From Rickettsiales bacterium (lineage in GTDB: Bacteria; Pseudomonadota; Alphaproteobacteria; Rickettsiales; SXRF01): a stretch of DNA of 64,000 bases. The notes below the pieces were generated by a model. That model saw nothing but the letters and a program-made list of their open reading frames with translations, was not told the DNA's origin and did no database searches. Below are positions 15,149 through 46,667 of the stretch, in pieces (the stretch's first letter is position 1; each line of letters opens with the position of its first letter). Made by a program: the position numbers and the translations under genes. The stretch spans positions 4,653 to 68,652 of the forward strand of contig CANHDY010000001.1 of NCBI GenBank assembly GCA_947459535.1, read 5' to 3'.

Positions 15149-15233
15149 AGGTTTCGTAGGTTGCGAAGGTTACGAAGGTTGCGTAAGCTAAACCTACGAA
15201 ACTTACGAAACATACGCAACCTCCGTAACCTCC
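15149..15233. repeat. nonamer array inverted repeat: ~4x GGTTNCGNA then ~5x TNCGNAACC
   Basis: Read directly. Fills the whole spacer between the divergent start codons at 15148 and 15236. Confidence 0.9.
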
Positions 15234-15235
15234 CA

Positions 15236-15754: not shown

Positions 15755-15770
15755 GTGAAATTATAGGGGA

Positions 15771-15879
15771 ATCCATCCAGAAATGTCAGCAGACATTTCT
15801 GGGACGCAAAAGGTCTACTGACCTTTTGCTATTCTGGATCCCGGATAAATTTTTTTACTAAAAAAATTTCCGGGATGAC
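15771..15879. repeat. composite GTCAT/ATCCAG...CTGGAT/ATGAC palindromic element (MITE-like) with two internal GTC..GAC hairpins
   Basis: atccatccag + hairpins at 15777-15802 and 15806-15829 + ctggatcccggataaattttttt..aaaaaaatttccgggatgac. Confidence 0.75.
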
Positions 15880-15880
15880 G

Positions 15881-19009: not shown

Positions 19010-21763
19010 TCAAGATGACAACTGTTTTAGTTTATACAGTATCTCCAGCGCTTCTTTTGGCGAGAGTGTATCGGGGTTGATGCTTTCTAACTCTGCCAAA
19101 ACCGTCTCTCCTTTTGCGGGAGGTGGCTGATTGGCGGGGGTAGAAGAATAGCTAAAGAGCGGCAAGCTCGCCGGCACCTCCTGCGAATGTTCTGCCTCAA
19201 GCTGGCGCAGAATCTCGCTGGCGCGGCTTATCACCGGCTCAGGCAGCCCCGCCAGCTTCGCCACGTGAATACCGTAGGAACGATCCGCCGTGCCGCTCGT
19301 CACCTCATGCAGAAACACCAGCTCGCCCTTCCATTCCTTCACTTTCATCGTGTAGCAGGCAAGCGCTGGCAGCGTGCCCGTCAGCTGGGTCAGCTCGTGG
19401 TAGTGGGTGGCAAAAAGTGCGCGCGCTTTGGTCACATGGTGCAGATGCTCCACCACCGCCCACGCGATGGAAAGACCATCAAACGTCGCGGTGCCACGCC
19501 CAATTTCATCAAGGATAATCAGCGAGCGCGAGGTGGCCTGATTCAAAATGGTGGCGGTTTCCACCATCTCCACCATGAAGGTGGATTGCCCGCGCGCCAA
19601 ATCATCCGCCGCGCCCACGCGTGAAAACAGCTTATCCACGATGCCAACACGCGCCGATTCCGCCGGCACAAAACCGCCCATCTGCGCCATGATGGCGATC
19701 AACGCATTCTGGCGCAGGAAGGTTGATTTACCGGCCATGTTCGGGCCGGTGAGCAACCACAAATGCTTATCGGGTGCAAGGCTGGTATCATTGCCGATGA
19801 AAGGTTGCTGGCTGGTTTTGGCCAGCGCCGCCTCCACCACCGGATGACGCCCCTTTCGAATCTCAAACTCCAGCGATCCGTTGATTTCCGGGCGAACATA
19901 ACGGCGTTTGGCGGCAAGCTCAGCCAACGCCGCCACCACATCAAGATGCGCCAGCGCACGTGCGGACGCCACCACGCGCGGCGCGGCGTCAAGCACCTCA
20001 GCGACCAGCTCCGCAAAAATCTCAAGCTCCAGTTTCAGCGCCTTATCACCCGCTTCGCTGATGCTGCGCTCCAGCTCAGAAAGCTCCACGGTGGTGTAGC
20101 GCAGATTATTCGCCAGCGTCTGGCGGTGGATAAAATCCTGCGTCACCTTACTCTGGTGCGCCTGCGTAATTTCAATGTAATAACCAAGAATGTTGTTATA
20201 GCGAATCTTCAGTGTATTGATGCCGGTGGCGTCAATGTAGCGCTGCTGCAGCGCCGCGATGCGCCGCGCGCCCTCATGCTTCAGCGAGCGCAGCTCGTCG
20301 AGCGCCGCATGGTAGCCGCTGGCGATAAAATCACCGTCGCGCGCAAACAGCCCCGCCTCCGGTTTGATCGCGGACTTAAGCCGCTGGATGAGTGTTTCAT
20401 GGCCGCCCAGCTCGCCGCGCTTCTGCGCCAGCTCCTCTGGTAGTGCTGACGAGTCCTGCAGCTCCAGTGCCATGCGAATCTGCTGCGCGGCGTCCAGCGC
20501 CTGAGCAATGGAGAGTAAATCCCTTGGCCCACCGCGCGCAAGCGACAGCCGTGCCAGTGCCCGCTCCATATCTGGCGCATTCTTGAGCTGTTCGCGCACG
20601 GCGCTGCGAAGGCTGGCTTCATCTTTAAACAGCATCACCTGCTCCTGCCGGCGAAGAATCGCCTGTGGGTCGGTCAGCGGCGCGCATAGCCAGCTGGCCA
20701 GCAGCCTTGCGCCGCTGGCGGTGACGGTCTCATCCATTACCCAAAACAGGCTACCCCGGCGCTCGGCGGATAAGGTCTGCATCAGCTCAAGGTTGCGCAG
20801 GCTCGCCGCATCAATCTGCATGTGGCTGGCTGGCAGCTGACGCGTGGGTGCATCCAGACGCGGCATCGCGGTTTTCTGCGTGAGGCGCACATAATCCAGC
20901 AGCACGCCACACGCCGCCAGCTCGCCCGGCATGAAATCCCCAAACACACTCAGCGTCGCCACGGCGTAATACTCGGTCATGATGCGCGTAGCGCGCGCCG
21001 GATCAAACAGATGGGCGGGCAGCCGCGTCAGCTGGCTCTGCCACATCGGCTGCCATGCACTTTGCTCGCCGTCTGCCAGCAGAATCTCGCGCGGGGCAAT
21101 GCGCGAAAGTTCGGCGGCGATCTGCTCCGGCGCCACCATCGCCACACGAAACTCACCGGTGGTGATGTCCAGCCAGGCAAGGCTTGCCGACGCCTGCCCG
21201 CGAGCTGGCGCCACCAACGCGCATAAATACTGCGAACTGCGGCCATCAAGCAGCGTGTCTTCAGTAATCGTTCCCGGCGTCACAATACGCACCACATCGC
21301 GCGCCACCACTGCTTTGTAACCGCGTTTTTTGGCTTCTTCCGGTGTTTCCAGCTGCTCGGCAATGGCCACGCGCAGCCCGGCGCGGATCAGCTTTTCAAG
21401 GTAAGTATCATAGGCATGCACCGGCACGCCGCACATCGGAATATCCTCGCCGGCATGCTTGCCACGCTTGGTCAGCGCAATATCCAGTACCTGCGACGCC
21501 ACCGCTGCATCCTCAAAAAACAGCTCGTAAAAATCGCCCATGCGATAAAACAGCAGACAGTCCGGATGCGCCGCCTTCAGCGCCAGATATTGCGCCATGG
21601 CGGGCGTCGTTTTTTCCTCCCCCCCTTGAGGGAGGAGGTTAGGAGGGGGGGTGACAACTGTTCTGCCTGAGCGTATGTCACCCCCCACCCCGCCCTCCCC
21701 CTCAAGGGGGGAGGGAGAAATATCTTCCAAAACAACTGCTTGTTTAGCCATACCCATTGTCAC
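19010..21763 (-). CDS. mutS: DNA mismatch repair protein MutS
   Basis: 'TPAMAQYL..K....[14 protein letters not shown]', 'GPNMAGKST', 'DEIGRGT'. The N-terminus contains a repeat element, so the start is uncertain. Confidence 0.92.
21616..21716. repeat. tripartite palindromic element, family B (C7/G7 type)
   Basis: cctcccccccttgagggaggagg / gggggggtgaca..tgtcacccccc / ccctccccctcaagggggggaggg. Lies inside the mutS 5' region. Confidence 0.85.
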
Positions 21764-22494: not shown

Positions 22495-22584
22495 CACGTG
22501 GTTATCGTGGCTCGTGGTTATCGTGGTTGAATAAAATTTTCACGACAATCACGATAGTCACGACAATCACGGCCATCACGAGCC
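22495..22584. repeat. CGTGGTT-unit array (arm 1), AT loop, CACGA-unit array (arm 2)
   Basis: cgtggttat cgtggct cgtggttat cgtggttg / aataaaatttt / cacgacaat cacgatagt cacgacaat cacggccat cacgagcc. Confidence 0.9.
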
Positions 22585-22589
22585 TTAAA

Positions 22590-24914: not shown

Positions 24915-24946
24915 CCCTCTGCCTTTGGGAGAGGGTTAGGGGTGAG
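24915..24946. repeat. family A element, partial
   Basis: ccctctgcctttgggagagggttaggggtgag, located between the maeB and relE stop codons. Confidence 0.7.
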
Positions 24947-25588: not shown

Positions 25589-25605
25589 TTTTTCTTGCCC
25601 TCAAT

Positions 25606-25689
25606 CCCCTCTCCCCTCCGAGGAGAGGGTTAGGGTGAGGGGGACAGCGGTTTAGGCCTCTCCCTTCCAGGGAGAGGGTTAGCGGAGGG
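25606..25689. repeat. two family A elements in tandem
   Basis: cccctctcccctccgaggagagggttagggtgaggggg and cctctcccttccagggagagggttagcggaggg. Confidence 0.8.
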
Positions 25690-25698
25690 TTATCTCAA

Positions 25699-29275: not shown

Positions 29276-30667
29276 CTACGCTACAGAATTTGGTGTAGGG
29301 CTAGTTAAAGCAAGCGACGTTTTTGCAGAAAAGCTTAGATTGTGCATGATGGTATTATCAGCGGATAACTCAACCCCCTTTGAAATTGGCGTTCCGGTCA
29401 CTTCTTTAGCCGCCTCTTTTGCATCATTGTTAGCTTTTTCCTTGGCTTTCCTTACCTGCACTTCTGCATTAAATTCACTAACATTCCTCCGGATGGCTTC
29501 TTCGTCCTTGGCAAAATCCGTCGTATGTGGCGCCGCCATATCCTGGCCACCATAAGCCATGCGCATAAGCCCCTCTGGCGTTTCTGTGATAGCTGTTTTA
29601 CCCCTTATTATGATGTCCTCAGCCGTTACTCCGTTGATGATCGGAACGTAAGCCTCACGAATGCGTCCTTCCGGGGTGATATCGCGCTCTTTTAACCCCG
29701 CAGTCGTGCCCTCAACCACGGCATTACCCTCTTTGGTAATCACATAGGCATGAGGAGATATATGGTGTTTCCAGTTCTTGTCCCACCCCGATTCCGTGAG
29801 TATTTTATTGATGTAAGTTTCATCGATCAGGTACTCGCCATTTCTATGCCGAACCATGCAAATGTTTGAAATCATCATATGGTTGGGCACGCGCGCATCA
29901 TCAAGCAAGATACTCATGATCGGCGCATAATGGCGGCAGACCAGCTCGCCTTTTTGCATTTCGGCGAAATCTACCGGCTTTCCGCCGATAAACTGCCGTT
30001 TGGGATGGTAAACGGCTTCGTACTCTGCCGAATTTGCCTTACTATTCCCAAGCGTGTGGTGGCCATAAGCGCCGTAAGCAGCATAAACATCGGCGACAAT
30101 CAGGTTAGTGATTTTCCTTTCACGCTGATGCACATCCGCAATAAATTCCGGCGATTCTTTGACAGCGTAACGATCGCCATATTCTTTCGCCTTGATGCGT
30201 AGTTCTTTGAGCCTCGGATCGCGTGAAAGATCATATTCCACAAACGGATCAAGCGCTCTCCTCTCCTGATAACCCAGCATCACTTCTGTAGACGTTGCAC
30301 TCTTTACGCTCCCATGCACTTGAGCAGTTTTTGCTAAAACAGCTGAATCTGCTTTATACCAGTAAGCGTCAGGATTTAGCGCGCTATACCCTTCCGGTAT
30401 AGTTTTTGGTTTGAAGCGATTGCCAACTGCTTTGACTACGCCGTGATCGCCAAACACCATGCCGTCTTTTTTGACAAAGTCTCCGATGAGACTACCGGCC
30501 ATCGCCGCAGCCGGAATCGCCAGCCACGCAAGCCAACCCGATGTCATACCGCTGAATAATCCAACAATCGCAAGCCCGGCGCCCACCAAAGCGCCTAAGG
30601 GCGCACCGGTTCCTAATTGCCCGGCAACCTCTGAAATCCCCGTTTCTTCAACCCACGATTTGGCCAT
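29276..30667 (-). CDS. hypothetical protein: N-terminal glycine-zipper TM pair plus transglutaminase-like Cys/His core
   Basis: 'GTGAPLGALVGAGLAIVGLFSGMTSG' near the N-terminus. 'GELVCRHYAP' (C244) and 'PHAYVITKEGNAVVEGT' (H306) further in. More AT-rich than the flanking cta genes. Confidence 0.6.
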   Translation of the reverse strand: MAKSWVEETGISEVAGQLGTGAPLGALVGAGLAIVGLFSGMTSGWLAWLAIPAAAMAGSLIGDFVKKDGMVFGDHGVVKAVGNRFKPKTIPEGYSALNPDAYWYKADSAVLAKTAQVHGSVKSATSTEVMLGYQERRALDPFVEYDLSRDPRLKELRIKAKEYGDRYAVKESPEFIADVHQRERKITNLIVADVYAAYGAYGHHTLGNSKANSAEYEAVYHPKRQFIGGKPVDFAEMQKGELVCRHYAPIMSILLDDARVPNHMMISNICMVRHRNGEYLIDETYINKILTESGWDKNWKHHISPHAYVITKEGNAVVEGTTAGLKERDITPEGRIREAYVPIINGVTAEDIIIRGKTAITETPEGLMRMAYGGQDMAAPHTTDFAKDEEAIRRNVSEFNAEVQVRKAKEKANNDAKEAAKEVTGTPISKGVELSADNTIMHNLSFSAKTSLALTSPTPNSVA

Positions 30668-30718: not shown

Positions 30719-30784
30719 AATGACAGTATGGTGACACTTATAAGACAGGATAATGACAGTATGGTGACACTTATAAGACAGGAT
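30719..30784. repeat. perfect 2 x 33-bp tandem repeat
   Basis: aatgacagtatggtgacacttataagacaggat occurs twice. Lies in the AT-rich region upstream of the 463-aa orphan. Confidence 0.95.
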
Positions 30785-30817
30785 AATATAATGATATATA
30801 TATCTTTATTTTACCAA

Positions 30818-30892: not shown

Positions 30893-32503
<1,611 letters not shown>

Positions 32504-33478: not shown

Positions 33479-34924
33479 ATGAGTATGAATAGCACCACCC
33501 CGGAATCGCTTTTCTTTTCAGGAACCAGCCTCGACCAGGTTCGGGCGCAGCAGCTAGTCTCGTCCGCCCTTGACGGCATGGATGACGGCGAGCTGTTTTT
33601 GGAATACATCCAGTCGGAATCGCTGGCTTTTGATGATGGCCGCCTGAAAAATGCCAGCTTTAATACCGCGCAGGGCTTTGGGCTTCGCAGCGTACTCGGC
33701 GAGGCCACCGCCTATGCCCACGCCTCGGAAATCAGCGAAGCAGCGCTTGCCCGCGCTGCCCAGACCGTACGCGCCGTGAACCATGGCCAGAAACCCGTTC
33801 ATGCCAGCATGGCGCCCGCCTTTGGCACCAACCGCAAGCTCTACCGCGATATCAACCCGCTGAAGGAAGTGGCGTTTGAGGTGAAAGTAGCGCTGCTGCA
33901 GGAGATTGATGCTTACCTGCGCGGCAAGGATGCGCGTGTGAAGCAGGTTTCCGCCTCCATTTCGGGGCAGTGGCAGGCGGTGCATATTATGAAAGCAGAC
34001 GGCAGCGCCGCAAGCGACATCCGCCCGCTGGTGCGCGTGAATGTCAGCGTGATTGTCGAAGAACATGGCCGCCGCGAATCCGGCTCCAGCGGCGCGGGCG
34101 GCCGCGTGGCTTATGCACAATATATAGGCGAAGGCGGCTGGAAAAAGCTGGCGGATGAAGCGCTGCGGCAAGCGCTGGTGAACCTTGAGTCCATCCCCGC
34201 CCCGGCCGGCGAAATGCCGGTGGTGCTGGGGAATAGCTGGTGCGGCGTTTTGCTGCATGAAGCGATCGGCCACGGGCTGGAAGGTGATTTCAACCGCAAA
34301 GGAACCTCGGCATTTGCCGGGCTTATGGGCAAACAGGTCGCAAGTAAAGGCGTCACCATCGTCGATGATGGCACGATTGTTGATAAGCGCGGCTCGCTCT
34401 CGATTGATGATGAAGGCACCCCAACCTCACGGACCACGCTAATTGAGGATGGCATCCTTGTTGGCTATATTCAGGACAGGCTAAATGCCCGCCTGATGAA
34501 CATGCGCGCCACCGGCAATGGCCGCCGCGAAAGCTTCGCTCACCAGCCCATGCCGCGCATGACCAACACCTATATGTTAAATGGTGAAGGCACACGCGAA
34601 TCGATGATCGCCTCGGTGAAGCGCGGTATTTATGCGGCGCATTTTGGCGGCGGCCAGGTGGATATCACCTCCGGCAAATTCGTGTTTTCTGCTTCCGAAG
34701 CCTACCTGATTGAAAACGGCAAAATCACCGCGCCGCTGAAAGGCGCAACCCTGATTGGCAACGGCCCCGACTGTCTCACCAAAATTCGCGCCATCGGGAA
34801 TGACACGGCGCTGGATGATGGCGTCGGCACCTGCGGCAAAGCCGGCCAGTCTGTGCCCGTCGGCGTCGGCCAGCCCTCCCTTCTCATTGATGCAATGACG
34901 GTGGGTGGGACGGCTGTCGGATGA
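33479..34924 (+). CDS. tldD: metalloprotease TldD
   Basis: 'HEAIGHGLEGD', 'GNGRRESF', 'VGTCGKAGQ'. Confidence 0.92.
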   Translation: MSMNSTTPESLFFSGTSLDQVRAQQLVSSALDGMDDGELFLEYIQSESLAFDDGRLKNASFNTAQGFGLRSVLGEATAYAHASEISEAALARAAQTVRAVNHGQKPVHASMAPAFGTNRKLYRDINPLKEVAFEVKVALLQEIDAYLRGKDARVKQVSASISGQWQAVHIMKADGSAASDIRPLVRVNVSVIVEEHGRRESGSSGAGGRVAYAQYIGEGGWKKLADEALRQALVNLESIPAPAGEMPVVLGNSWCGVLLHEAIGHGLEGDFNRKGTSAFAGLMGKQVASKGVTIVDDGTIVDKRGSLSIDDEGTPTSRTTLIEDGILVGYIQDRLNARLMNMRATGNGRRESFAHQPMPRMTNTYMLNGEGTRESMIASVKRGIYAAHFGGGQVDITSGKFVFSASEAYLIENGKITAPLKGATLIGNGPDCLTKIRAIGNDTALDDGVGTCGKAGQSVPVGVGQPSLLIDAMTVGGTAVG

Positions 34925-35016
34925 CGGCTGACGGCTCACGAAAAAATCAGAAATTCATAGAAAACCTAGTCGATTCCGCCCATTTTCTTACTTGTCATCC
35001 GCCATCCGTCATCCGT
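34909..35016. repeat. CGGATGA/CGGCTGA heptamer arm (34909-34940) and TCATCCG arm (34993-35016), ~52-nt spacer
   Basis: Read directly. Arm 1 overlaps the last tldD codons and the stop codon. Confidence 0.8.
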
Positions 35017-35133
35017 TTATGACAGTTCCATGACAGTTCGGTTACGGAACCGTGAAGATTGCATCCACGGGCGTTTTAGCATTTGTGCTCTGTTTGGTTT
35101 TCGATAAGATGAGTACATAGAGGAACACAAATT

Positions 35134-35381: not shown

Positions 35382-35470
35382 GTCATGCCCGTGAAAACGG
35401 GCATCCAGCGCGCCGCGTCTGCGGCGAAATGGTATTAAGTAGACTGGATTCCCGCTTTCGCGGGAATGAC
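35382..35470. repeat. composite element: GTCATGCCCGTGAAAACGGGCATCCAG - spacer hairpin - CTGGATTCCCGCTTTCGCGGGAATGAC
   Basis: Read directly. The spacer holds the hairpin cgccgc-gtct-gcggcg. Confidence 0.8.
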
Positions 35471-35934: not shown

Positions 35935-35935
35935 T

Positions 35936-36022
35936 CGGATGACGGATGACGGTTGTCGGATGACGAAGCATCTGCTTTAGTGTTTTTTGTCATCTGTCAT
36001 CCGTCATCTGTCATCCGCCACC
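35936..36022. repeat. CGGATGA heptamer arm, loop, GTCATCY heptamer arm
   Basis: cggatga cggatga cggttgt cggatga ... gtcatct gtcatcc gtcatct gtcatcc gccacc, then the lgt ATG. Confidence 0.9.
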
Positions 36023-36850
36023 ATGCTCACCTTCCCCAATATCGACCCCATCGCGCTTGAGCTAGGACCGCTTGCCATTCGCTGGTATTCGCTGGCTTAT
36101 ATTGCAGGGATATTGCTGGGCTGGTGGATTATCGTGCGCGAGCTGGCCGCCCGCCCGCTGGAAAACTTAAATAAAAAAGCCATCGATGACATGATCGTCT
36201 GGGCGATTATCGGCATCATGCTAGGCGGCAGGCTGGGCTACTGCCTGTTTTATAAACCATCTTACTACCTCGAAAATCCGCTGGAAATCCTTCAGCTCTG
36301 GCAGGGCGGCATGTCGTTCCATGGCGGCTTTGCCGGCTTTGTGCTCGCTTTTTATCTTTTCTGCCGCAAATACAACGTACGCTTCCTCGCGCTGATGGAT
36401 CTGATGGCCTGCGTCGCGCCGATTGGCATCGGGCTTGGCCGCCTCGCCAACTTCATCAATGGTGAACTTTATGGCCGCGTTACCGATTCACCGCTCGGCA
36501 TGATCTTCCCACACAGTGACGGCCAGCCGCGCCACCCCAGCCAGCTTTATGAGGCTTTTTCCGAAGGGCTGATTTTATTCATGATCATGATGTGCTTGCT
36601 GAAATTGTCCACACTCCGCGACCGCGCGGGAGCCTTGTCCGGCCTGTTTTGTATCGGTTACGGAACTGCCCGCATTATTTGTGAGTTTTTCCGCGAGCCG
36701 GATGCTTATCTGGGTTTCCTCTTTGCCGGTGCCACCATGGGGCAGCTGCTGAGTCTGCCGATGATTTTCATCGGTATATATCTGATATGGAAATCATCCC
36801 CCTCACCCGCCGCTTCGCGTCCTCCCTCTCCCCGTCGGGGAGAGGGTTAG
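36023..36850 (+). CDS. lgt: prolipoprotein diacylglyceryl transferase
   Basis: 'IRWYSLAYI' and 'GGMSFHGG'. The last ~17 codons and the stop codon lie inside a palindromic element. Confidence 0.9.
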   Translation: MLTFPNIDPIALELGPLAIRWYSLAYIAGILLGWWIIVRELAARPLENLNKKAIDDMIVWAIIGIMLGGRLGYCLFYKPSYYLENPLEILQLWQGGMSFHGGFAGFVLAFYLFCRKYNVRFLALMDLMACVAPIGIGLGRLANFINGELYGRVTDSPLGMIFPHSDGQPRHPSQLYEAFSEGLILFMIMMCLLKLSTLRDRAGALSGLFCIGYGTARIICEFFREPDAYLGFLFAGATMGQLLSLPMIFIGIYLIWKSSPSPAASRPPSPRRGEG

Positions 36851-36860
36851 GGTGAGGGGG
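36798..36860. repeat. family A element (nested hairpins)
   Basis: cccccctcaccc...ccctctccccgtcggggagagggttagggtgaggggg, spanning the lgt 3' end. Confidence 0.85.
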
Positions 36861-36865
36861 TAAAT

Positions 36866-37942
36866 ATGAACGATTTACTTTCCATCATCAAGGAACGCAT
36901 CGCTGAAAACGGGCCGATTCCGGTTTCGGAATATATGAGCCTGTGCCTTGCCCATCCTGAGCATGGCTATTACATGAAACGCGACCCGCTGGGCAAGGAT
37001 GGCGATTTTATTACGTCACCGGAAATCTCTCAGGTTTTTGGGGAATTGCTGGGTCTTTGGATCGCAAACCAGTGGGAAAAGCAAGGAAAGCCAAACGCCA
37101 CCCTGCTTGAAATGGGCCCCGGGCGCGGCACACTGATGAATGACGCCCTGCGCGCCACTAAAAAAATTAAGGGATTGCATGATGCGGTCTCGGTTCGTCT
37201 GCTGGAAATCAGCCCGGCGCTGAAGCAAAAACAATGGCAGCTGCTGGCGGGCAAGCACCATGATCTCGGCTGGCTGGAATCACTCGATTCACTGCCGCTA
37301 GAGCCCCTTTTTGTGGTGGCCAATGAGTTTTTTGACGCCCTGCCAATCAGGCAGTTTGTATGGCAAAATGAGAAGTGGCATGAGCGTTATGTTGGAATGG
37401 ACGGCGATCAACTTAAGTTCGTCATCGCGAGTGAGCGAAGCGAGCGTGGCGATCCAGACTGGATTGCTTCACCTTCGGCTCGCAATGACGGTGAGATTAA
37501 AGAAATTTGTGAACCAGCAACTGAAATCATTTCAAAGATCTCAAGCCATATTAAAACCTATGGCGGCGCGGCGCTCATCATTGATTACGGCTACAATGAA
37601 GGCAACGGCGACACGCTCCAGGCCATGCGTCGCCACCAGTATTTTGAAATATTTTCAAAGCCCGGTAGCGCCGACATCACCGCCCATGTCGATTTCGCCG
37701 CCCTCAAAGAAGCGGCAGAAAAAGCAGGCGCCAAAGTATTTGGCGCGACGCCGCAAGGGCGTTTCCTGATGAAGATCGGCGCCGGCCAGCGCACCCAGAA
37801 ACTCTGCGGAAGCGCCTCGCAGGAACAAAGCAGAGAGCTGATCTCGGGTCTCGATCGCCTCGCTTCCCCGGAAAAAATGGGCGAACTATTCAAAGTGCTG
37901 GCGATATTGCCGCCAGATGCCATGCATGCGGAGGGTTTTTAA
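36866..37942 (+). CDS. MidA/NDUFAF7-family SAM-dependent methyltransferase (DUF185)
   Basis: 'DFITSPEISQVFGEL', 'EMGPGRGTLM'. Carries a 69-bp palindromic element in frame. Confidence 0.8.
   Translation: MNDLLSIIKERIAENGPIPVSEYMSLCLAHPEHGYYMKRDPLGKDGDFITSPEISQVFGELLGLWIANQWEKQGKPNATLLEMGPGRGTLMNDALRATKKIKGLHDAVSVRLLEISPALKQKQWQLLAGKHHDLGWLESLDSLPLEPLFVVANEFFDALPIRQFVWQNEKWHERYVGMDGDQLKFVIASERSERGDPDWIASPSARNDGEIKEICEPATEIISKISSHIKTYGGAALIIDYGYNEGNGDTLQAMRRHQYFEIFSKPGSADITAHVDFAALKEAAEKAGAKVFGATPQGRFLMKIGAGQRTQKLCGSASQEQSRELISGLDRLASPEKMGELFKVLAILPPDAMHAEGF
37421..37489. repeat. compact composite element GTCATCGCGAG...ATCCAGaCTGGAT...CTCGCAATGAC
   Basis: 69 bp. Lies inside the midA-like CDS. 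Confidence 0.85.
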
Positions 37943-38781
37943 TGCTCTTTCCCCTCACCTCTTCCAATCTCGACTTACCACACATCCGCCACGGCTTTTT
38001 CAGCCGCAGTGGCGGCGTGAGTCAGGGTATCTACGCATCGCTGAACTGCGGCCCCGGCTCCGGCGATAATCTGGAACATGTGGGCAAAAACCGCCAGCGC
38101 GTAAGCAGCCACATGGGTGCACCGCTCATCACCTGCCATCAGGTTCACAGCAGCGAGGTGGTGACGGTTGAGATGCCATGGCAGCAAGGGCAGGCACCGC
38201 AGGCCGATGCGATGGTAACGAATCAGCCCGGCATCGCGCTGGGTATCCTGACGGCGGATTGCCTGCCGGTACTTTTTGCTGATCGCAGCCAGCGCATCAT
38301 CGGCGCGGCGCATGCCGGCTGGAAGGGTGCCTTCACCGGCGTACTGGAAAACACCATTGCCGCCATGAAAGCCCTTGGCGCCAGCGACATTGCCTGCGCC
38401 ATTGGCCCCGCCATTTCGCAGCCCTCTTATGAAGTCGGCCCGGAATTTTATGAGCGTTTCACGAAAATATACTCCCCCAGCTTGCGGGGGGAGATAGAGG
38501 GGGGTGATCATGCAACACTGCAAACTCACCCCCCCTACCCCCCCGCAAGCGGGGGGGTAATAAACAATGACCAATTCTTCATCCCCTCTTCCCGCGAAGG
38601 CCATCACCTCTTCGACCTCAAGGGCTATGCGCTGGCGCGGCTCAAAAATGCGGGCGTTGAGGCGGAACTTCTTGACCGCGATACCTGTTTTGAAGATGAT
38701 AGCTTCTTCAGCTTCCGCCGCGCCACCTTAATCGGCGAACGTGGCTATGGCAGGCAGGTTTCGGTAATATCATTAGTATAG
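37942..38781 (+). CDS. pgeF: peptidoglycan editing factor PgeF (YfiH/laccase-domain family)
   Basis: 'QVHSSEVV', 'ADAMVT', 'TADCLPV', 'HAGWKG'. Carries an ~87-bp element in frame. Confidence 0.85.
   Translation: MLFPLTSSNLDLPHIRHGFFSRSGGVSQGIYASLNCGPGSGDNLEHVGKNRQRVSSHMGAPLITCHQVHSSEVVTVEMPWQQGQAPQADAMVTNQPGIALGILTADCLPVLFADRSQRIIGAAHAGWKGAFTGVLENTIAAMKALGASDIACAIGPAISQPSYEVGPEFYERFTKIYSPSLRGEIEGGDHATLQTHPPYPPASGGVINNDQFFIPSSREGHHLFDLKGYALARLKNAGVEAELLDRDTCFEDDSFFSFRRATLIGERGYGRQVSVISLV
38472..38558. repeat. tripartite palindromic element, family B
   Basis: ctcccccagcttgcggggggag / ggggggtga..tcacccccc / acccccccgcaagcgggggggt. Lies inside pgeF. Confidence 0.85.
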
Positions 38782-38783
38782 CT

Positions 38784-38897
38784 GTCATCCCCGCGAAAGC
38801 GGAGATCCAGTTATAAACTTGACGAAAAATGTCTACTGACATTTTTCTTCTCTGGATCCCGGATAAATTTTTCTACTGAAAAATTTTCCGGGATGAC
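38784..38897. repeat. composite element with GTCTACTGAC hairpin
   Basis: gtcatccccgcgaaagcggagatccag + gaaaaatgtctactgacatttttc + ctggatcccggataaattttt..aaaattttccgggatgac. Confidence 0.85.
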
Positions 38898-38913: not shown

Positions 38914-39786
38914 ATGACTCTCATTCCCTTTGACGATCGTGATGGATGGATCTGGTTTAACGGCACGATGGTGCCGTGGCGCGATGCCAAGGTTCATGTG
39001 CTGACACATGGCCTGCATTATGGTTCCTGCGTGTTCGAAGGGGAGCGGGCGTATGGCGGCAAAATTTTCAAAAGCCGCGAGCATGCTGAGCGACTATATA
39101 AATCCGGTGAACTGCTTGGCTTCAAAATCCCCTTTGATGTTGAAACGCTGATGCAGGCGAAAGAAGAAGTGATTTCGAAAAATAATCTGGTGGATGCGTA
39201 CCTGCGCCCGGTGGCGTGGCGTGGCAGCGAAATGATGGCCGTTTCAGCGCAGCAGACAAAAATCCATGTCGCCATCGCCGCATGGCAGTGGCCGAGCTAT
39301 TTCGGCAAAGAAGCGAAAGAAAAAGGCCTGCGCCTGCAGGTAGCGCGCTGGGCACGCCCCGCGCCCAACACCGCCCCCACCGCCAGCAAAGCGGCCGGAC
39401 TTTACATGATCTGCACCATCAGCAAACACGAAGCCGAGGCCGCCGGCTACAATGATGCGCTGATGTATGATTATCGCGGCTTTGTTGCGGAAGCCACCGG
39501 CGCGAATGTGTTTTTCATGATGGACGGCAAGCTCCACACCCCGAAACCGGATTGCTTCCTGGACGGCATCACGCGCCGCACGGTGATCGATCTCGCGCGG
39601 CAGCATAAGATCGAGGTCGTTGAGCGCCATATCAAGCCGGACGAGCTGGCGCATGCGACCGAGGCCTTCCTCACCGGCAGCGCCGCCGAGGTCATGCCCA
39701 TTGGCAGCATCGAAGGGCAGCATTTCGTTGTCGGCGAGGCAACCAAGATGTTGATGGGGGCTTATCAGCAAGCTGTAAGCAATTAA
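38914..39786 (+). CDS. ilvE: branched-chain amino acid aminotransferase
   Basis: 'HGLHYGSCVFEGERAY'. AAGGA lies upstream of ATG 38914. The earlier ATG at 38893 lies in a repeat terminus. Confidence 0.9.
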   Translation: MTLIPFDDRDGWIWFNGTMVPWRDAKVHVLTHGLHYGSCVFEGERAYGGKIFKSREHAERLYKSGELLGFKIPFDVETLMQAKEEVISKNNLVDAYLRPVAWRGSEMMAVSAQQTKIHVAIAAWQWPSYFGKEAKEKGLRLQVARWARPAPNTAPTASKAAGLYMICTISKHEAEAAGYNDALMYDYRGFVAEATGANVFFMMDGKLHTPKPDCFLDGITRRTVIDLARQHKIEVVERHIKPDELAHATEAFLTGSAAEVMPIGSIEGQHFVVGEATKMLMGAYQQAVSN

Positions 39787-40190
39787 CCCACCTCTTGCCC
39801 GCCGTTTCTTTCAGTAAAAACTTCTGTCATTCTTTTCAGCTCGGCTTTTGTATGTTCGCCCATTTCCGGCTTGATCGCGTTATTAATACCTAGAGATTGT
39901 TTTATTAAATCTTGATCAACATTATTTTTATTCATGATTCCATAGGTTTCCATCGTTGCTAGTGCAGCGACAAGATCCTCTTTATTATATTGACTATATA
40001 GCTTGGAATCTCCGCTTTGAATCGCTTTTAGAATTAACTCTGCAGCAAAAATCCTTCTTTTTTCTTCTTCCGTATAATGATTCATGTATTTTTGATTGTT
40101 TAGCTCGTCTATCAGATTAGCATTTTCTCGATAAGCCGCTGCATTAATCAAAAACCCATCAATATCTTCTCTTTTAAACTGCGTTCCCAT
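39783..40190 (-). CDS. hypothetical protein, AT-rich orphan (135 aa)
   Basis: GGAG lies 5 nt upstream of the ATG at 40190. Visibly AT-rich. No family recognised. Confidence 0.45.
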   Translation of the reverse strand: MGTQFKREDIDGFLINAAAYRENANLIDELNNQKYMNHYTEEEKRRIFAAELILKAIQSGDSKLYSQYNKEDLVAALATMETYGIMNKNNVDQDLIKQSLGINNAIKPEMGEHTKAELKRMTEVFTERNGGQEVG

Positions 40191-40315
40191 GGTTACTCCG
40201 TGCAAATAATTTAGAAATTAACGTTGCGATTCTAGCTACAGTTAATAGCGATTGAATAGACCAATATAGGGTTTTTATTCAAAATTCACAGAACTGTAAT
40301 AATTCCGATTTCACC

Positions 40316-40882
40316 CTAATTCAAATATTTCCACCCGGTTTTCACATATGCATAGCCGGTGACCAGCGTCAGGATCGCAGCGAGCCAGAGGAAAAAGCGC
40401 CCCAGCGTTTCCGCGTGCAGCCACTCAGGCCCGCCCGCCCCCAGCAGTAGCAGGAAGATCGCAGTCATCTGCACGGCGGTTTTCCATTTGGCAAGCTTCG
40501 AAACCGGCACACTCACGCGGATTTCCGCCAGAAACTCGCGTAGCCCCGACACCAGAATCTCGCGGCATACAATCGCAATCGCCGGAATAATATCAGCGCG
40601 GGTCGTATCGTCGGTGTTGGACTGCACCAGTAGCAAGAGGGCAGTCGCCACCAACAGCTTATCAGCAATGGGATCAAGAAACCGCCCCACGGCGGATTCC
40701 ACCTGCCATTTACGCGCCACATAGCCATCCAGCCAATCGGTGATGCAGGCGAGCAGAAACAGCCCGGACGATAGCCAGAAACCCCAGTTGCCTTTAAGAA
40801 AAAACACCAGCACCAGCGCCGGTATCACCGCGATGCGGAAATAGGTGAGGTAATTGGGAAGGTTCTTCTTAAATGTGGTCAT
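40316..40882 (-). CDS. pgsA: CDP-diacylglycerol--glycerol-3-phosphate 3-phosphatidyltransferase
   Basis: CDP-alcohol transferase motif 'DWLDGYVARK...GRFLDPIADK'. Confidence 0.9.
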   Translation of the reverse strand: MTTFKKNLPNYLTYFRIAVIPALVLVFFLKGNWGFWLSSGLFLLACITDWLDGYVARKWQVESAVGRFLDPIADKLLVATALLLLVQSNTDDTTRADIIPAIAIVCREILVSGLREFLAEIRVSVPVSKLAKWKTAVQMTAIFLLLLGAGGPEWLHAETLGRFFLWLAAILTLVTGYAYVKTGWKYLN

Positions 40883-40959
40883 CGTGGTTCGTGGTTATCG
40901 TGGCTCGTGATAAACGGCTACCACGATACTTAACCACGACGGCCACGGCAACCACGATC
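40883..40959. repeat. CGTGGTT-unit array inverted repeat
   Basis: Fills the complete spacer between the cysA stop (40960) and the pgsA start (40882). Confidence 0.9.
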
Positions 40960-42144
40960 TTACTCGAAAACCCTGACCTGCTTCGGTCTGACATACAGCT
41001 TATCATGCTTGCTAATCGCCAGCTGGTCAATAATCGCTTTGGGCACCTCCGCCTGAATGATGCTGCCATTGCTGCGCTGCATCTCCAGCTTGGCAAGCGA
41101 GCCGGCGGGGTTGATGTGAATCACACTCGCCGGAATATATTCATGATCGCCTTCCGGCTCCTTAGTCACAAACATCTCGTGCGGGCGCGCATACATTTTC
41201 ACCGGCACCCCGCGCTCTTTGAGCGCCGCGCGCACCTTGCCACGCGCGCTGGCTTTTTTGGTGATCTCCGGCATCGGCAGCAGCATATCCGGCACGATTT
41301 TTCGTAGTGACCCCAGCCAGCCTTCCTGCTTTGCCACCTGCATCGCGGCTGGCTTTGCTTCCCATAAATCATCTTCGGCGAGGTGAGTATTGCCCGCAGC
41401 ATCACGCCAGCCGAGAAACTCGTTATAATTGCCAAGAAAATCATACACAAAACCATTGGCGGGGGTGTGATACACCTCATCCGGCGTGCCGGTCTGCTCG
41501 ATTTTTCCTGCGTTCATTACCACCACACGGTCGGCCACTTCCATCGCCTCTTCCTGATCGTGCGTGACAAACAGGGTGGTGATGTGCAGCTCGTCATGCA
41601 GCCTTCTCAGCCAGCGCCGCAGCTCTTTGCGCACCTTGGCATCCAGCGCACCAAACGGCTCATCAAGCAGCAGCAGCTTCGGCTCCACGGCAAGCGCGCG
41701 TGCGAGCGCCACACGCTGGCGCTGGCCGCCGGAAAGCTGGCTGGGGTAGCGATCATAAAAATTATCAAGATGCACAAGGCGCAGCAGGTTCATCACCCGC
41801 TCGGTAATCTGCTCGTAAGGCAGGCGCTCGCGCTTTGGCCGCACACGCAGGCCAAATGCCACATTCTCAAACACCGTCATGTGGCGAAACAGCGCATAAT
41901 GCTGAAACACAAACCCGACTTTACGTTCACGCACATGCTGGTGGGTGGTGTCGATGCCATGCACCAGCACCTTGCCGCTATCCGGCATATCCAGCCCGGC
42001 GATCATGCGCAGCAGCGTGGTCTTGCCGGAACCAGAAGGCCCGAGCAGCGCCACCAGCTCGCCATCTTTCACGCTCAGGTCAACGCCAGCCAGCGCATGA
42101 AAGTCGCCAAATGATTTATGAATCTGGATTAGTTCAATGGTCAT
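40960..42144 (-). CDS. cysA: sulfate/thiosulfate ABC transporter ATP-binding protein
   Basis: Walker A 'GPSGSGKTT', signature 'LSGGQRQR', Walker B 'LLLDEP'. Downstream of cysTW. Confidence 0.9.
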
Positions 42145-43024
42145 GGTTTGCCTTTAGTTCCTTCGCATACCTAGCCTCAACTGCGTATTTTAGCAACAAA
42201 GTGAGCACGGCCAGTAAGGTCAGCAGCGACGCGACCGCAAACGCCGCTACGAAATTATATTCATTATACAGAATCTCCACATGCAGCGGCACAGTGTTCG
42301 TCTGCCCCTTGATATGGCCGGAAACGACTGACACTGCGCCAAACTCGCCCATCGCCCGTGCATTGCACAGCAGTACGCCGGAGAGCAGCGCCCATTTGAT
42401 ATTGGGCAGCGTCACGCTGATGAAGGTACGAAAGCCCGATGCGCCAAGCAGAATCGCCGCTTCCTCTTCTTCGCTGCCCTGCTCTTCCATCAGCGGAATC
42501 AGCTCACGCGCCACAAACGGAAAGGTGACAAAGATGGTGGCAATCACCAGGCCGGGCACCGCAAAAATAATCTGGATATCGTGTGCAGCGAGCCACTCGC
42601 CCAGCGCCGAATGCGCGCCAAACAGCAGCACATAAATCAGGCCGGAAATCACCGGCGAGACGGAAAACGGCAAATCAATGAAGGTGATGAGCAGGCGCTT
42701 GCCGGCAAATTCATATTTGGCAATCGCCCAGGAGGCGCAGAGGCCAAACACCACATTAAACGGCACCGCAATCGCCGCCACCAGCAACGTGAGCTCGATG
42801 GCCGACAGCGCATGGCGGTGGGCAAGCGCATCTGCGTAAGCCTCCCAGCCCTTTGCAAACGCTTCTGCAAAAACCACCGCCAGCGGCAACGCCACCAGCG
42901 CCAGCATGAAGCCAAGCGCGACAGCAATGAGCACCAACTTCACCCACCATGGCTCTCCTAAAATCTCCCTCTCCCTTTTAGGGAGAGGGTTGGGGTGAGG
43001 GTTATCAGTCCAAATGACGCTCAT
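42134..43024 (-). CDS. cysW: sulfate ABC transporter permease CysW
   Basis: Permease EAA-type region '[15 protein letters not shown]'. The first ~20 codons lie in a repeat element, so the start is uncertain. Confidence 0.85.
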
Positions 43025-43876: not shown

Positions 43877-43878
43877 AC

Positions 43879-43956
43879 GTCATGGCGAGCGTAGCGAAGC
43901 CATCCAGTTTGGCAAGTCTGGATTGCCGCGTCGGCCTTTGGCCTCCTCGCAATGAC
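43879..43956. repeat. compact composite element GTCATGGCGAG...ATCCAG..CTGGAT...CTCGCAATGAC
   Basis: Read directly. Lies between the cysT start and the recJ stop. Confidence 0.85.
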
Positions 43957-43960
43957 GGAA

Positions 43961-45769
43961 CTATGACGCAAGCGATACATCTTCGATCATCAGCTGCGCG
44001 GTGATGTTGCCGTTATAGTGGTTTTCCTTAAGGTGGCCAATCAGCGAAATCTCCTTGCCGCGTGAAGAAAGTAGGCTGTCGCCCAGCTTGGTACCCACCG
44101 CGCGAAAGGCAATGGCGTTCAGGCGGGCGTTACTCAGGCGGTCGATCAGCAGCGTGCGGATATGCTGCTCGCCCACAATCTCCGGCTTCAAATTCACGGC
44201 ATGATCCACCATCAGCCGCACCGAAGGGTTGCCCTGCCCGAACGGCTCCAGCTGTTTCAGAGTATCGATCAGCTGGGTGGTCGCGCCGCCCACCGCCACA
44301 CGCGCATCAATTCGGTAGTGACGCTTTCGCGATATGTCGCCCACTTGGCGGCGAATATGATCACCAAGGAATTGTTCCAGCTGCGGAATATATTCTTCTT
44401 TGACCGTAAAGCCAGCCGCCATGGCATGACCACCGCCCGCAACCAAAAGGCCGCTGCCCAGCGCCGCAATCACCGCCGCGCCCAGATCCACCCCGCTCAC
44501 ACTGCGCGCCGAGGCCTTGCCCACACCATCTTTCAGAGCGATCACCGCGCACGGCACATTAAAACGTTCCTTCACCCTGCCCGCGACAATGCCGATTACC
44601 CCCGGGTGCCAGCCCTCGCCGGAAAGCAGCAGCACCGGCGCATTCTGCGGCGCGCACTCAGCAAGCGCCATGGCTTCTTCCAGCACACCCGCCTCAATGG
44701 CGCGGCGCTCTTCGTTGTAGCGCTCCAGCTCAGCGGCAAGCATCGTTGCCTCTTCTTCATTCTCGCTGGTGAGAATACGCACACCAAGATCCGACTTGCC
44801 CACGCGCCCGCCAGCATTGATGCGCGGCCCCAGAATAAAACCGCAATGATAGGCCGCAAGCTGACCATCGGCGCGCGCGGTCTGCAGCAGCGTGCGAATG
44901 CCGATATTCTGCTTAGCTGCCATCACTTTCAGCCCTTGCGCGACCAGTGCGCGGTTAGCGCCGATAAGCGGCACCACATCCGCCACCGTGCCCAGCGCGA
45001 CAATATCGAGGAGTTGTTTCAGGTCAGGTAAAGGTCGTGGTTCGTGGTTCGTGGTTCGTGGTTCGTGATTTCGCAGCACTCGATTCACCGCCACACACAG
45101 GAGGAATGCCACGCCCACCGCTGCAAGGTACGTATGCGGTGAGGTTTCATCGAGCCGGTTGGGGTTCACCAGCGCAAGGCATTTAGGTTTTTTCGCCTCA
45201 CCCTGATGATGATCCACCACCACCACATCCAGCCCCGCGTCATGCGCTGCCTCCAGCGGAGCAAAGGAAAGTGTGCCGCAATCCACCGTAATGACAAGGC
45301 TGGCGCCCTGCTCTTTCAGCAAAAGCAGGCCAGCGCTATTAGGGCCATAACCCTCCTTCATACGATCCGGAATATAAACCAATGGCTCGCTGCCCAGCGC
45401 ACGCAAATAGCGCACCAGCAGCGCAGAAGACGTCGCGCCATCCACATCATAATCGCCCCAGATGGCGATGGTTTCCCCCGCCAGCACCGCCGCCGCCACA
45501 CGCTCTGCCGCCACCTCCATATCCAGCAAATGTGCTGGATCCGGCAAAGATGATTTAAGGCTGGGATTAAGGAAATCATGAACCTGCTCAGTGGTAACAC
45601 CGCGCGCTACCAGAATTCGTGAGAGTATCTCTGGTAGATCATGCGCGTGCATCACCTGCTGCACCAGATGCTCAGGGGCTTGGCTAAATTGCCATGAAGC
45701 GCCGGTCGCGGAAACGAGGTGAGAGGATGATTGGATGATTGGATGATGAAGTGAGTTTGTGCTATGCAT
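43961..45769 (-). CDS. recJ: single-stranded-DNA-specific exonuclease RecJ
   Basis: DHH motifs 'IWGDYDVDGATS', 'VVVDHH', 'GGGHAMAAG'. Contains an in-frame heptamer tract. Confidence 0.92.
   Translation of the reverse strand: MHSTNSLHHPIIQSSSHLVSATGASWQFSQAPEHLVQQVMHAHDLPEILSRILVARGVTTEQVHDFLNPSLKSSLPDPAHLLDMEVAAERVAAAVLAGETIAIWGDYDVDGATSSALLVRYLRALGSEPLVYIPDRMKEGYGPNSAGLLLLKEQGASLVITVDCGTLSFAPLEAAHDAGLDVVVVDHHQGEAKKPKCLALVNPNRLDETSPHTYLAAVGVAFLLCVAVNRVLRNHEPRTTNHEPRPLPDLKQLLDIVALGTVADVVPLIGANRALVAQGLKVMAAKQNIGIRTLLQTARADGQLAAYHCGFILGPRINAGGRVGKSDLGVRILTSENEEEATMLAAELERYNEERRAIEAGVLEEAMALAECAPQNAPVLLLSGEGWHPGVIGIVAGRVKERFNVPCAVIALKDGVGKASARSVSGVDLGAAVIAALGSGLLVAGGGHAMAAGFTVKEEYIPQLEQFLGDHIRRQVGDISRKRHYRIDARVAVGGATTQLIDTLKQLEPFGQGNPSVRLMVDHAVNLKPEIVGEQHIRTLLIDRLSNARLNAIAFRAVGTKLGDSLLSSRGKEISLIGHLKENHYNGNITAQLMIEDVSLAS
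45036..45070. repeat. direct heptamer tract (CGTGGTT)x4 + CGTGATT inside recJ
   Basis: Read directly. Translated on the minus strand as RNHEPRTTNHEPRP. Confidence 0.95.
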
Positions 45770-46502: not shown

Positions 46503-46504
46503 CT

Positions 46505-46667
46505 GTCATCCCGGAAAATTTTGCAGGAGCAAAATTTATCCGGGATCCAGTGAAGCAAAAAGTCAAAAGACTTTTTGTGTTTTACTATTTGACGACCAAA
46601 GTCTACTGACTTTGATCTTTTCTGGATCCCGTGCTCGCTACGCTACTGCTTCGCTCCACGGGATGAC
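46505..46667. repeat. composite element with two internal GTC..GAC hairpins
   Basis: gtcatcccggaaaatttt..aaaatttatccgggatccag + hairpins at 46555-46577 and 46597-46614 + ctggatcccgtgctcgc..gctccacgggatgac. Confidence 0.85.

Follow-up and report, generated by a model that had tools for sequence, protein, structure and literature searches.

Inverted heptanucleotide repeat arrays at the cysA-pgsA junction of an alphaproteobacterial genome and its relatives

Inverted pairs of GGGAATC heptamers occur 70-75 times per genome in Xanthomonas, and Nostoc carries GGGGAYT repeats (Rehm et al. 2015, PMC4692102). The Xanthomonas arrays are intergenic, lie mostly less than 50 bp from a start or stop codon, are transcribed and can form stem-loops (PMC4692102); heptamer repeats of the cyanobacterium Calothrix are cited in the same work. 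Long simple-sequence repeats (SSRs, with units of 5-11 nt) of prokaryotes are, according to Mrazek et al. 2007 as cited in PMC4679880, most commonly heptamers, appear sporadically across taxa and have been proposed to arise by polymerase slippage. In marine Beggiatoaceae, TAACTGA direct repeats are found a few nucleotides upstream of start codons without a canonical ribosome binding site (RBS) (MacGregor 2015, PMC4679880), but also inside open reading frames, and a role in translation is suspected (PMC4679880). A mechanism has been worked out for the (ATCTTTC)n repeat in the 5'-UTR of H. influenzae hmw1A, where RNase III cleaves the hairpin and thereby raises expression (Rapun-Araiz et al. 2025, PMC12721329). 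Moreover, REP/BIME elements tagged with CGTC or GTAG are small hairpins that follow stop codons, sit sometimes in frame in repair genes, and are abundant in Alphaproteobacteria (Di Nocera et al. 2013, PMC3733652).

Here we describe the spacer between cysA and pgsA in a 64-kb stretch of alphaproteobacterial DNA, the whole of which is called the window below, together with arrays of the same kind elsewhere in the window, in related genomes, and in metagenome and viral contigs.

The cysA-pgsA spacer and its predicted fold

The open reading frames cysA (40960-42144; Pfam ABC_tran and TOBE_3) and pgsA (40316-40882; Pfam CDP-OH_P_transf) follow each other on the minus strand, with the TAA stop of the former at 40960-40962 and the ATG start of the latter at 40880-40882. 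The 77 bp between them (40883-40959, minus strand) read TAA-GATCGTGGTTGCCGTGGCCGTCGTGGTTAAGTATCGTGGTAGCCGTTTATCACGAGCCACGATAACCACGAACCACG-ATG in mRNA sense, and both the coordinates and the reading of this segment in a preliminary description of the DNA proved right. The ATG is the sole in-frame start past the upstream stop, and the N-terminus that it gives (..KKNLPNYLTYFRI) matches those of homologues.

The spacer is an inverted pair of short tandem-repeat arrays, that is, a hairpin simple-sequence repeat, built from a unit of approximately 7-9 nt (CGTGGTT in one arm, AACCACG in the other). Tandem Repeats Finder (TRF) detected arrays with a period of 7-9 in both arms, with 2.9-3.7 copies each, in which the units are degenerate (64-78% matches for the 7- and 9-nt rows, 89% for the 16-nt row). 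The spacer thus holds at least three head-to-tail units of 5-11 nt, above chance, as expected of a heptanucleotide SSR, and also a nearby reverse-complement array able to pair with the first, as expected of an inverted-pair SSR. CGTGGTT occurs 18 times in the window as compared to 5.9 +/- 2.5 times in shuffled sequence, an excess of about 3-fold (none of 100 shuffles reached 18), and four of these 18 copies fall within the 77 bp. The complementary motif CCACGA is likewise in excess, with 46 copies where 27 +/- 5 would be expected, and six of these copies lie in the spacer or at its edge. No mention of the CGTGGTN unit was found in the literature searched.

Folding of the spacer region as RNA (106 nt) gave -43.1 kcal/mol (z = -4.66), and none of 200 shuffles was as stable; as DNA, the spacer folds with -23 kcal/mol (z = -6.25). 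The predicted stem has 31 pairs (27 Watson-Crick and four G-U; -41.5 kcal/mol as RNA) and begins 1 nt 3' of the cysA stop codon. Its 5' arm (40918-40958, minus strand; fold and TRF) is G/T-rich, with CGTGG-type units spaced 7-13 nt apart, and reads AUCGUGGUU-GC-CGUGG-CC-GUCGUGGU-UAAGUA-UCGUGGUAG in mRNA sense. The apical loop of the minimum-free-energy fold is CCGU (40914-40917, minus strand), and the 3' arm (40881-40913, minus strand; UUAUCACGAGCCACGAU-AA-CCACGAACCACGAU in mRNA sense) is C/A-rich and poor in G. The last two bases of the 3' arm are the A and the U of the pgsA AUG, which pair at the stem base with bases adjoining the cysA UAA. The arm had been described as abutting the pgsA ATG; it does adjoin it, but that account is incomplete, as part of the start codon belongs to the stem itself. 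With the start codon paired in this way, an effect of the hairpin on pgsA translation is plausible. The observation that pgsA has no Shine-Dalgarno (SD) motif was also correct, as the 20 nt 5' of its ATG are without GGAG, GAGG or AGGA. SD motifs are absent from many alphaproteobacterial mRNAs, so that the missing motif alone is not unusual.

Kindred arrays and other repeats in the window

The window contains five further arrays of spacer-like build, which use three different units. A paired-array detector returned five inverted array pairs, and a more tolerant detector of an array plus a partner gave many false positives among GC-rich hexamers. Two of the further arrays belong to the CGTGGTT family. 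The first lies upstream of maeB (22497-22589, plus strand; TRF and fold) and consists of CGTGGTTAT x3.8, a loop and TCACGACAA x4.7, followed by ..CCTTAAA-ATG, with the last repeat unit ending 10 nt 5' of the maeB ATG (22590); the kinship of this array with the spacer, already pointed out in the preliminary description, was borne out. The second is a single-armed, perfect (ACCACGA)x4.7 array (45035-45067, minus strand; TRF), which lies in frame in recJ and encodes HEPRTTNHEPR. The three copies of this family in the window have only the short unit in common, with no relation in loop, arm length or order of units.

The other three arrays are paired and built from other units. The array AGGTTNCGN x4 / NCGNAACCT x5 (15149-15235) makes up the entire spacer between the start codons of the divergent ThiF-family and Vut_1 genes; CGGATGA x4.3 / GTCATCY x4 (35935-36022, plus strand) extends from the stop of a 118-aa open reading frame to 6 nt before the lgt ATG; and GGATGAC/GTCATCC (34909-35016, plus strand) takes in part of the tldD stop codon with its 5' arm, its 3' arm stopping short of the ATGACAGTT element described below. 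All window arrays begin with the G/T-rich arm and finish with the C/A-rich one, whichever strand of such a palindrome is read. Altogether, inverted heptanucleotide arrays like the spacer form a class that is strewn over this genome and its relatives. As such arrays are also found in recJ, behind a stop codon and in the gap of a divergent gene pair, the position of the array in the spacer does not indicate operon-specific control.

The ACCACGA tract of recJ (43961-45769, minus strand) occupies a variable loop of RecJ (..NRVLRNHEPRTTNHEPRPLPDLKQLL..), and gain or loss of one unit would shift the reading frame of this repair exonuclease. In this loop, the relative L081 carries two REP-like inserts in place of the heptamer tract of the window, and the relative L086 carries none.

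In addition, CGTC-tagged, REP-like palindromes of the form cGTCATCCCgg...ccGGGATGACg, with CCAG tails, are present in the window at 15755-15880, 38782-38892, 43877-43960, 46503-46611 and about 35400-35470. Their terminal heptamer, CGTCATC, recurs as the unit of the arrays near tldD (34909-35016) and lgt (35935-36022), a hint that REP ends and array units may be connected. A second repeat family, cctctcccc...ggggagagggttagggtgaggg, also described by its ends as 'cctctcccc...ggggagagg', occurs at 18318-18401, 21611-21720, 24915-24945, 25600-25690, 36825-36862 and 42981-43003; one copy of it sits in the N-terminal coding part of a cysW-like gene, and recJ of L081 carries inserts that resemble the family. 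Given both the CGTC palindromes and this second family, hairpin repeats are abundant in this genome generally. We also observed a perfect 33-bp direct repeat x2.1 (AATGACAGTATGGTGACACTTATAAGACAGGAT; 30719-30787) in an AT-rich gap of 225 bp between two minus-strand open reading frames, one of 463 aa (29276-30667) and a cox1-like one of 532 aa (30893-32491).

Close to the spacer, a 140-aa open reading frame adjoining pgsA (39783-40205) has a low GC3 (0.32) and no Pfam match, and L081 (8197-8728) and L085 (357-888), unlike the window, have a BrnT/BrnA toxin-antitoxin pair in the interval from cysW to cysA. The cys-pgsA neighbourhood appears to show signs of frequent small insertions.

Orthologous junctions and contigs beyond the clade

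The host genome is alphaproteobacterial, and PgsA of the nearest species representative is 74% identical to that of the window; neither a record with exactly the window PgsA nor a near-identical strain was found. Relatives were taken as a graded series of PgsA homologues, and their DNA was compared at the junction, giving a set of 13 genomes (the window, L001, L002, L004, L081, L085, L086, L329, L330, L331, L333, L335 and L336). Seven of the 13 (L329, L330, L335, L336, L086, L002 and L004) have no spacer at all, the cysA stop and the pgsA start overlapping by four bases or one base as ATGA, GTGA or TAATG. A CGTGGT(T) hairpin array is present in two, the window (CGTGGTT) and L001 (CGTGGT). The remaining four carry, respectively, an RGTGGTT array with a 60-nt loop (L331), an AGTCGCC array (L085), a GGTRACR array (L333) and two REP-like GC hairpins (L081). 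L081 is the closest relative, with 96% PgsA identity and about 85% nucleotide identity, and even at that nucleotide identity the arrays of the two genomes are entirely different. The 3' ends of the inserts are located 0 to 18 nt from the ATG. This comparison, with overlapping genes in the majority and different inserts in the others, essentially goes against the regulatory structure suggested in the preliminary description.

A neighbour-joining tree of two proteins, CysA and PgsA (556 gap-free columns), grouped the window with L081 (bootstrap 100), these two with L085 (96), and the array-less L330 with the array-bearing L331 (92). As array-bearing and array-less genomes are sisters in this tree, at least five changes of state must have occurred at the junction. 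The inserts of L001 and L331 are flanked by an exact ATGA...ATGA duplication, the window having TAA and ATG instead. Such duplications permit precise excision as well as insertion, so that gains and losses cannot be told apart at the junction. Whether by gain or by loss, the cysA|pgsA junction is, on the sequences compared, highly dynamic and its array is not conserved, and its ancestral state appears to be a 4-base overlap of the cysA stop and the pgsA start. By comparison, one pair of strains that are 99.92% identical over 18 kb (L081 and L082) has the same number of units in a related array.

Regarding the predicted folds in the clade, the stem begins 0-1 nt past the stop codon in all eight clade arrays (8/8). 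Flush closure with both the stop and the start codon is seen in the window and L001, the 3' arms of other clade arrays ending as far as 18 nt before the ATG. Folding of the sense strand was better than that of the antisense strand in eight of ten clade arrays, and G-U pairs numbered 45 versus 24, a difference that is not significant. Better sense folding could mean selection at the RNA level, and hence function, but is suggestive only, as a transcription-linked C-to-T bias could also produce this pattern of folding and G-U pairs.

Three further sites turn over like the cysA|pgsA junction, namely the sequence upstream of lgt, the 3' side of tldD, and the Methyltransf_28|Cu-oxidase_4 junction. 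The spacer upstream of lgt has a hairpin array in five genomes, each with a different-looking unit, although common descent is clear for those of L333 and L086 and possible for those of L081 and L335. On the 3' side of tldD, the window has its GGATGAC arrays, L333 an 8-mer array of 4 and 13 units, L081 unrelated non-array sequence, and L335 nothing. Directly 3' of this variable sequence, all relatives examined have the ATGACAGTT element. It forms part of a conserved element at 35019-35050 of the window, ATGACAGTTC(C/G)ATGACAGTT(C/T)GGTTACGGAAC, which is also found in L081, L333 and L335 and may be a promoter or operator, or else mark where a small gene or RNA begins. At the Methyltransf_28|Cu-oxidase_4 junction, the window (37940-37944) and L333 have a TAATG overlap, L331 (11970-12085) has a GTTACGT/ACGTAGC array hairpin running into the ATG, and L081 (12872-12962) has a CGTC REP; an SD-like GGAGGG precedes the stop codon in every genome.

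Beyond the clade, metagenomes were scanned with the pattern CGTGGTNCGTGGT...ACCACG...ACCACG, in which the G-rich arm comes first. CGTGGTN hairpin arrays were found in at least 120 contigs, with a GC content of 0.45-0.72; among the matches listed, the unit was CGTGGTG, CGTGGTC, CGTGGTA or CGTGGTT, loops and flanks were unrelated save in evident orthologues, and the clade of the window was not represented. Across 686 kb of the listed contigs, period 7 accounted for 243 of approximately 340 tandem arrays, and other heptamer units co-occurred. According to crude calls of open reading frames, the arrays among the matches listed lay between co-directional genes in 33 cases, convergent genes in 12 and divergent genes in 12, and 20 of the 33 co-directional ones began at most 11 nt past the upstream stop. 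For the same listed matches, the sense strand folded better in 14 cases and the antisense strand in 18 (p = 0.8), and the scan criterion assigned T-rich tails to 32 of 240 array ends, about ten of which were true T-runs by eye. In viral contigs, a flexible pattern (CGTGGT N1-3, three times) yielded mostly period-9 matches, judged likely to be coding repeats, so that the period-7 matches alone were informative, and the G-arm-first and C-arm-first patterns yielded one match each. Four viral contigs (L093, L111, L150 and L163; GC 0.44-0.72) carry a single (AACCACG/ACCACGG)n array of 3-13 units, 3-14 nt 5' of an ATG, the sense strand always being C/A-rich. Overall, the recurrence of CGTGGTN in many unrelated environmental and viral contigs suggests a sequence preference of a mutational or binding process.

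Possible origin and function of the insert, and its known counterparts

We lean, with moderate confidence, towards explaining the spacer as a lineage-specific, hairpin-forming SSR with fast turnover, which is a tolerated structural insert rather than a purpose-built regulator. Since it changes fast and is specific to its lineage, and since relatives have overlapping genes in its place, the hairpin is not a conserved regulatory switch. Its tandem units may have been built by slippage during DNA replication, and fold-back template switching or correction of quasi-palindromes may have made the second arm and kept the two arms matched, while selection would only filter the sites where such a hairpin survives. 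Two notions about the units were discarded. That they carry stop triplets as back-up stops in all frames fits GGATGAC, TCGTAAG and GGTRACR and fails for CGTGGTN; that they were seeded from local junction sequence found no convincing match in the array-less orthologous sequence.

As to why the insert is tolerated, coupling of termination to reinitiation occurs at ATGA overlaps, and in phage T4 genes 25 and 38 hairpins bring separated translation signals together. On a polycistronic cys-pgsA mRNA, the insert would fold such that the base of the stem juxtaposes the cysA UAA and the pgsA AUG. De novo initiation at pgsA would be disfavoured by the missing SD motif and the paired AUG, and a ribosome that terminates at the UAA would open the lower part of the stem and could then start again at the AUG thus released. 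Under this model, which we put forward by inference, pgsA would stay translationally coupled to cysA, as in the relatives with an ATGA overlap; the insert is probably tolerated because its stem reunites stop and start and so preserves the coupling.

A more direct function at the RNA level has also to be considered. The preliminary description saw in the spacer a combined terminator/attenuator and initiation structure. The initiation part of that claim holds insofar as the start codon lies in the stem and an effect on pgsA is plausible, but the terminator part is not supported: the stem is followed by AUGACCACAUUU and not by a U-tract, a terminator scan of 40300-42200 placed no site in the spacer, no Rfam family reached threshold over the whole window, and the element fails the conservation expected of an intrinsic terminator or attenuator, being absent in 7 of 13 genomes and replaced by unrelated sequence in four others. 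A dedicated terminator/attenuator that also controls pgsA initiation, and so uncouples or tunes pgsA relative to the sulfate-transport genes, would explain a very stable stem with a sequestered AUG between two cistrons, and the roughly ten true T-runs at the 240 listed metagenome array ends mean that some members could terminate; nevertheless, with neither an alternative anti-terminator pairing nor a leader peptide evident, and with like arrays between divergent genes and in recJ, such a device is very unlikely here. The main functional alternative, by analogy, would be that RNase III cuts the long stem. As a processing or stability module, the stem of about 30 bp could be an RNase III substrate or a protective 3' hairpin like that of REPs, and in the former case cleavage might part the pgsA message from that of cysA and leave it with a G-poor, unstructured leader, at which initiation could proceed independently of an SD motif. 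The hmw1A (ATCTTTC)n hairpin, the closest experimentally studied case, works in this manner (PMC12721329), the 31 pairs are of adequate length, the listed co-directional arrays that begin shortly past a stop (20/33) sit at the usual site of 3' stabilisers, and the sense strand folds better in 8/10 clade arrays. However, the larger set of listed metagenome arrays has no strand asymmetry, convergent and divergent gene pairs are equally common in it (12 each), and the element is dispensable in most relatives; we regard this module as unlikely.

Other explanations concern the DNA rather than the message. A small non-autonomous mobile element (MITE- or REP-like) that enters stop/start overlaps and duplicates an ATGA target would agree with the ATGA...ATGA flanks in L001 and L331, with the REP-like hairpins that occupy identical junctions in L081, with the recurrence of the CGTGGTN family both within one genome, where it has several loci, and among many unrelated organisms, and with the CGTC-tagged REPs typical of Alphaproteobacteria, which also insert in repair genes (PMC3733652). 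Against it, the copies have only the short unit in common, loops, arm lengths and order being unrelated in more than 100 metagenome copies outside orthologous loci; neither a GTAG or CGTC tag nor a linked transposase is present; and selection to keep both codons would by itself also yield an ATGA duplication. A MITE was rejected for its copies without a conserved interior and for the missing ATGA flanks in the window, and a GTAG/CGTC REP because the 77-bp spacer consists of tandem units and has no terminal tag, genuine CGTC REPs (e.g., 43877-43960) looking different. We regard a mobile element as quite unlikely. Heptad iterons are known as operators, as the ribbon-helix-helix protein omega of pSM19035 binds runs of WATCACW in direct and inverted orientation. 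By that analogy, the spacer could be an operator for a cooperative DNA-binding protein, and the 7-bp period, the direct-plus-inverted heptads, ATCACGA-like units that by reading resemble the omega heptads, and one array between divergent genes, where promoters are expected, would suit it. Even between genomes of about 85% nucleotide identity, though, orthologous sites differ in their unit, a single genome contains several units unrelated to each other, the spacer is internal to an operon, and the arrays hold no promoter-like sites that we could find; we consider a protein operator very unlikely. Least credible is a contingency locus, at which changes in unit number would switch pgsA expression by phase variation, as heptamer repeats upstream of Haemophilus genes do (PMC12721329). 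We rejected it, because the degenerate units of the spacer slip poorly, pgsA is a housekeeping gene, and the array that can be compared in the single pair of 99.9% identical strains (L081/L082) has one length.

Returning to the tolerated, fast-turnover SSR, the unchanged unit number in that same pair gives no sign of slippage. Moreover, random origin in situ would not by itself lead one to expect that CGTGGTN recurs in unrelated organisms, and one unit family at several sites of this genome hints at some form of spread. A bolder view would treat CGTGGTN-type and related inverted heptamer arrays as a so far unrecognised, cross-phylum class of self-renewing hairpin microsatellites, which an active process, either replication-linked fold-back synthesis or an enzyme, makes or implants with a preference for stop codons and stop/start overlaps, and whose stems serve as interchangeable modules for coupling or RNase III cleavage. 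This view seems rather doubtful to us; if true, it would explain how a hairpin persists at the junction while its unit sequence is swapped.

For annotation, spacers of this type should not be taken for conserved elements resembling riboswitches or attenuators, and gene callers wrongly extend starts into them: PgsA of two relatives is annotated with 199 aa (P0001) and 207 aa (P0003) as compared to 188 aa in the window, with spurious N-terminal extensions (MELNKEPDPAIRRGW.. and MLIPGFAGDWRPETDDF..) read from the repeat spacer. Furthermore, a junction with at least five changes of state among close relatives, at which every insert is a hairpin, is a clean natural experiment, which shows how far tightly coupled genes tolerate insertions and bears on the origin of hairpin microsatellites.

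Among the known systems, the inverted GGGAATC pairs of Xanthomonas share with the spacer the convergent heptamer arrays, the G-rich arm coming first on either strand, and the location near start or stop codons. Xanthomonas, however, has one G-quadruplex-forming unit per genome, whereas several units that do not form G-quadruplexes (CGTGGTT, GGATGAC, AGGTTNCGN) coexist here; the host is alphaproteobacterial, and the arrays, which are not the same in close relatives, exactly fill the interval from stop to start. The turnover documented at orthologous junctions is a further difference. The long SSRs and the Calothrix repeats, as far as the works citing them relate, are similar in the dominant 7-nt period, the sporadic taxonomic occurrence and the slippage proposed; in the same accounts, the long-SSR surveys deal with single direct arrays, and a paired inverted build with turnover at junctions lies outside their subject. 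The TAACTGA repeats of Beggiatoaceae are likewise heptamers next to starts without an RBS and occur also in open reading frames, but they comprise 169 direct sets and one indirect set of one unit and form no hairpin, from which the spacer differs. REPs resemble the spacer in being hairpins after stop codons, and in relatives they occupy junctions identical to those of the arrays; they differ in being 20-40 bp long and in having a tag and a sequence conserved across the family instead of tandem units; the spacer has no tag. The stem loops out RNA as the hairpins of phage T4 genes 25 and 38 do, here bringing a stop codon beside an AUG, although the T4 hairpins are conserved, functional and experimentally supported and the geometry of the spacer is predicted. 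Finally, in hmw1A a heptamer repeat also contributes an arm to a long RNA hairpin that directly precedes a gene, but the other arm is a non-repeat, G-rich sequence, the locus encodes a phase-variable adhesin, and the pyrimidine-rich arm is 5', that is, in the opposite orientation. It is the only case compared for which a mechanism, cleavage by RNase III, has been demonstrated.
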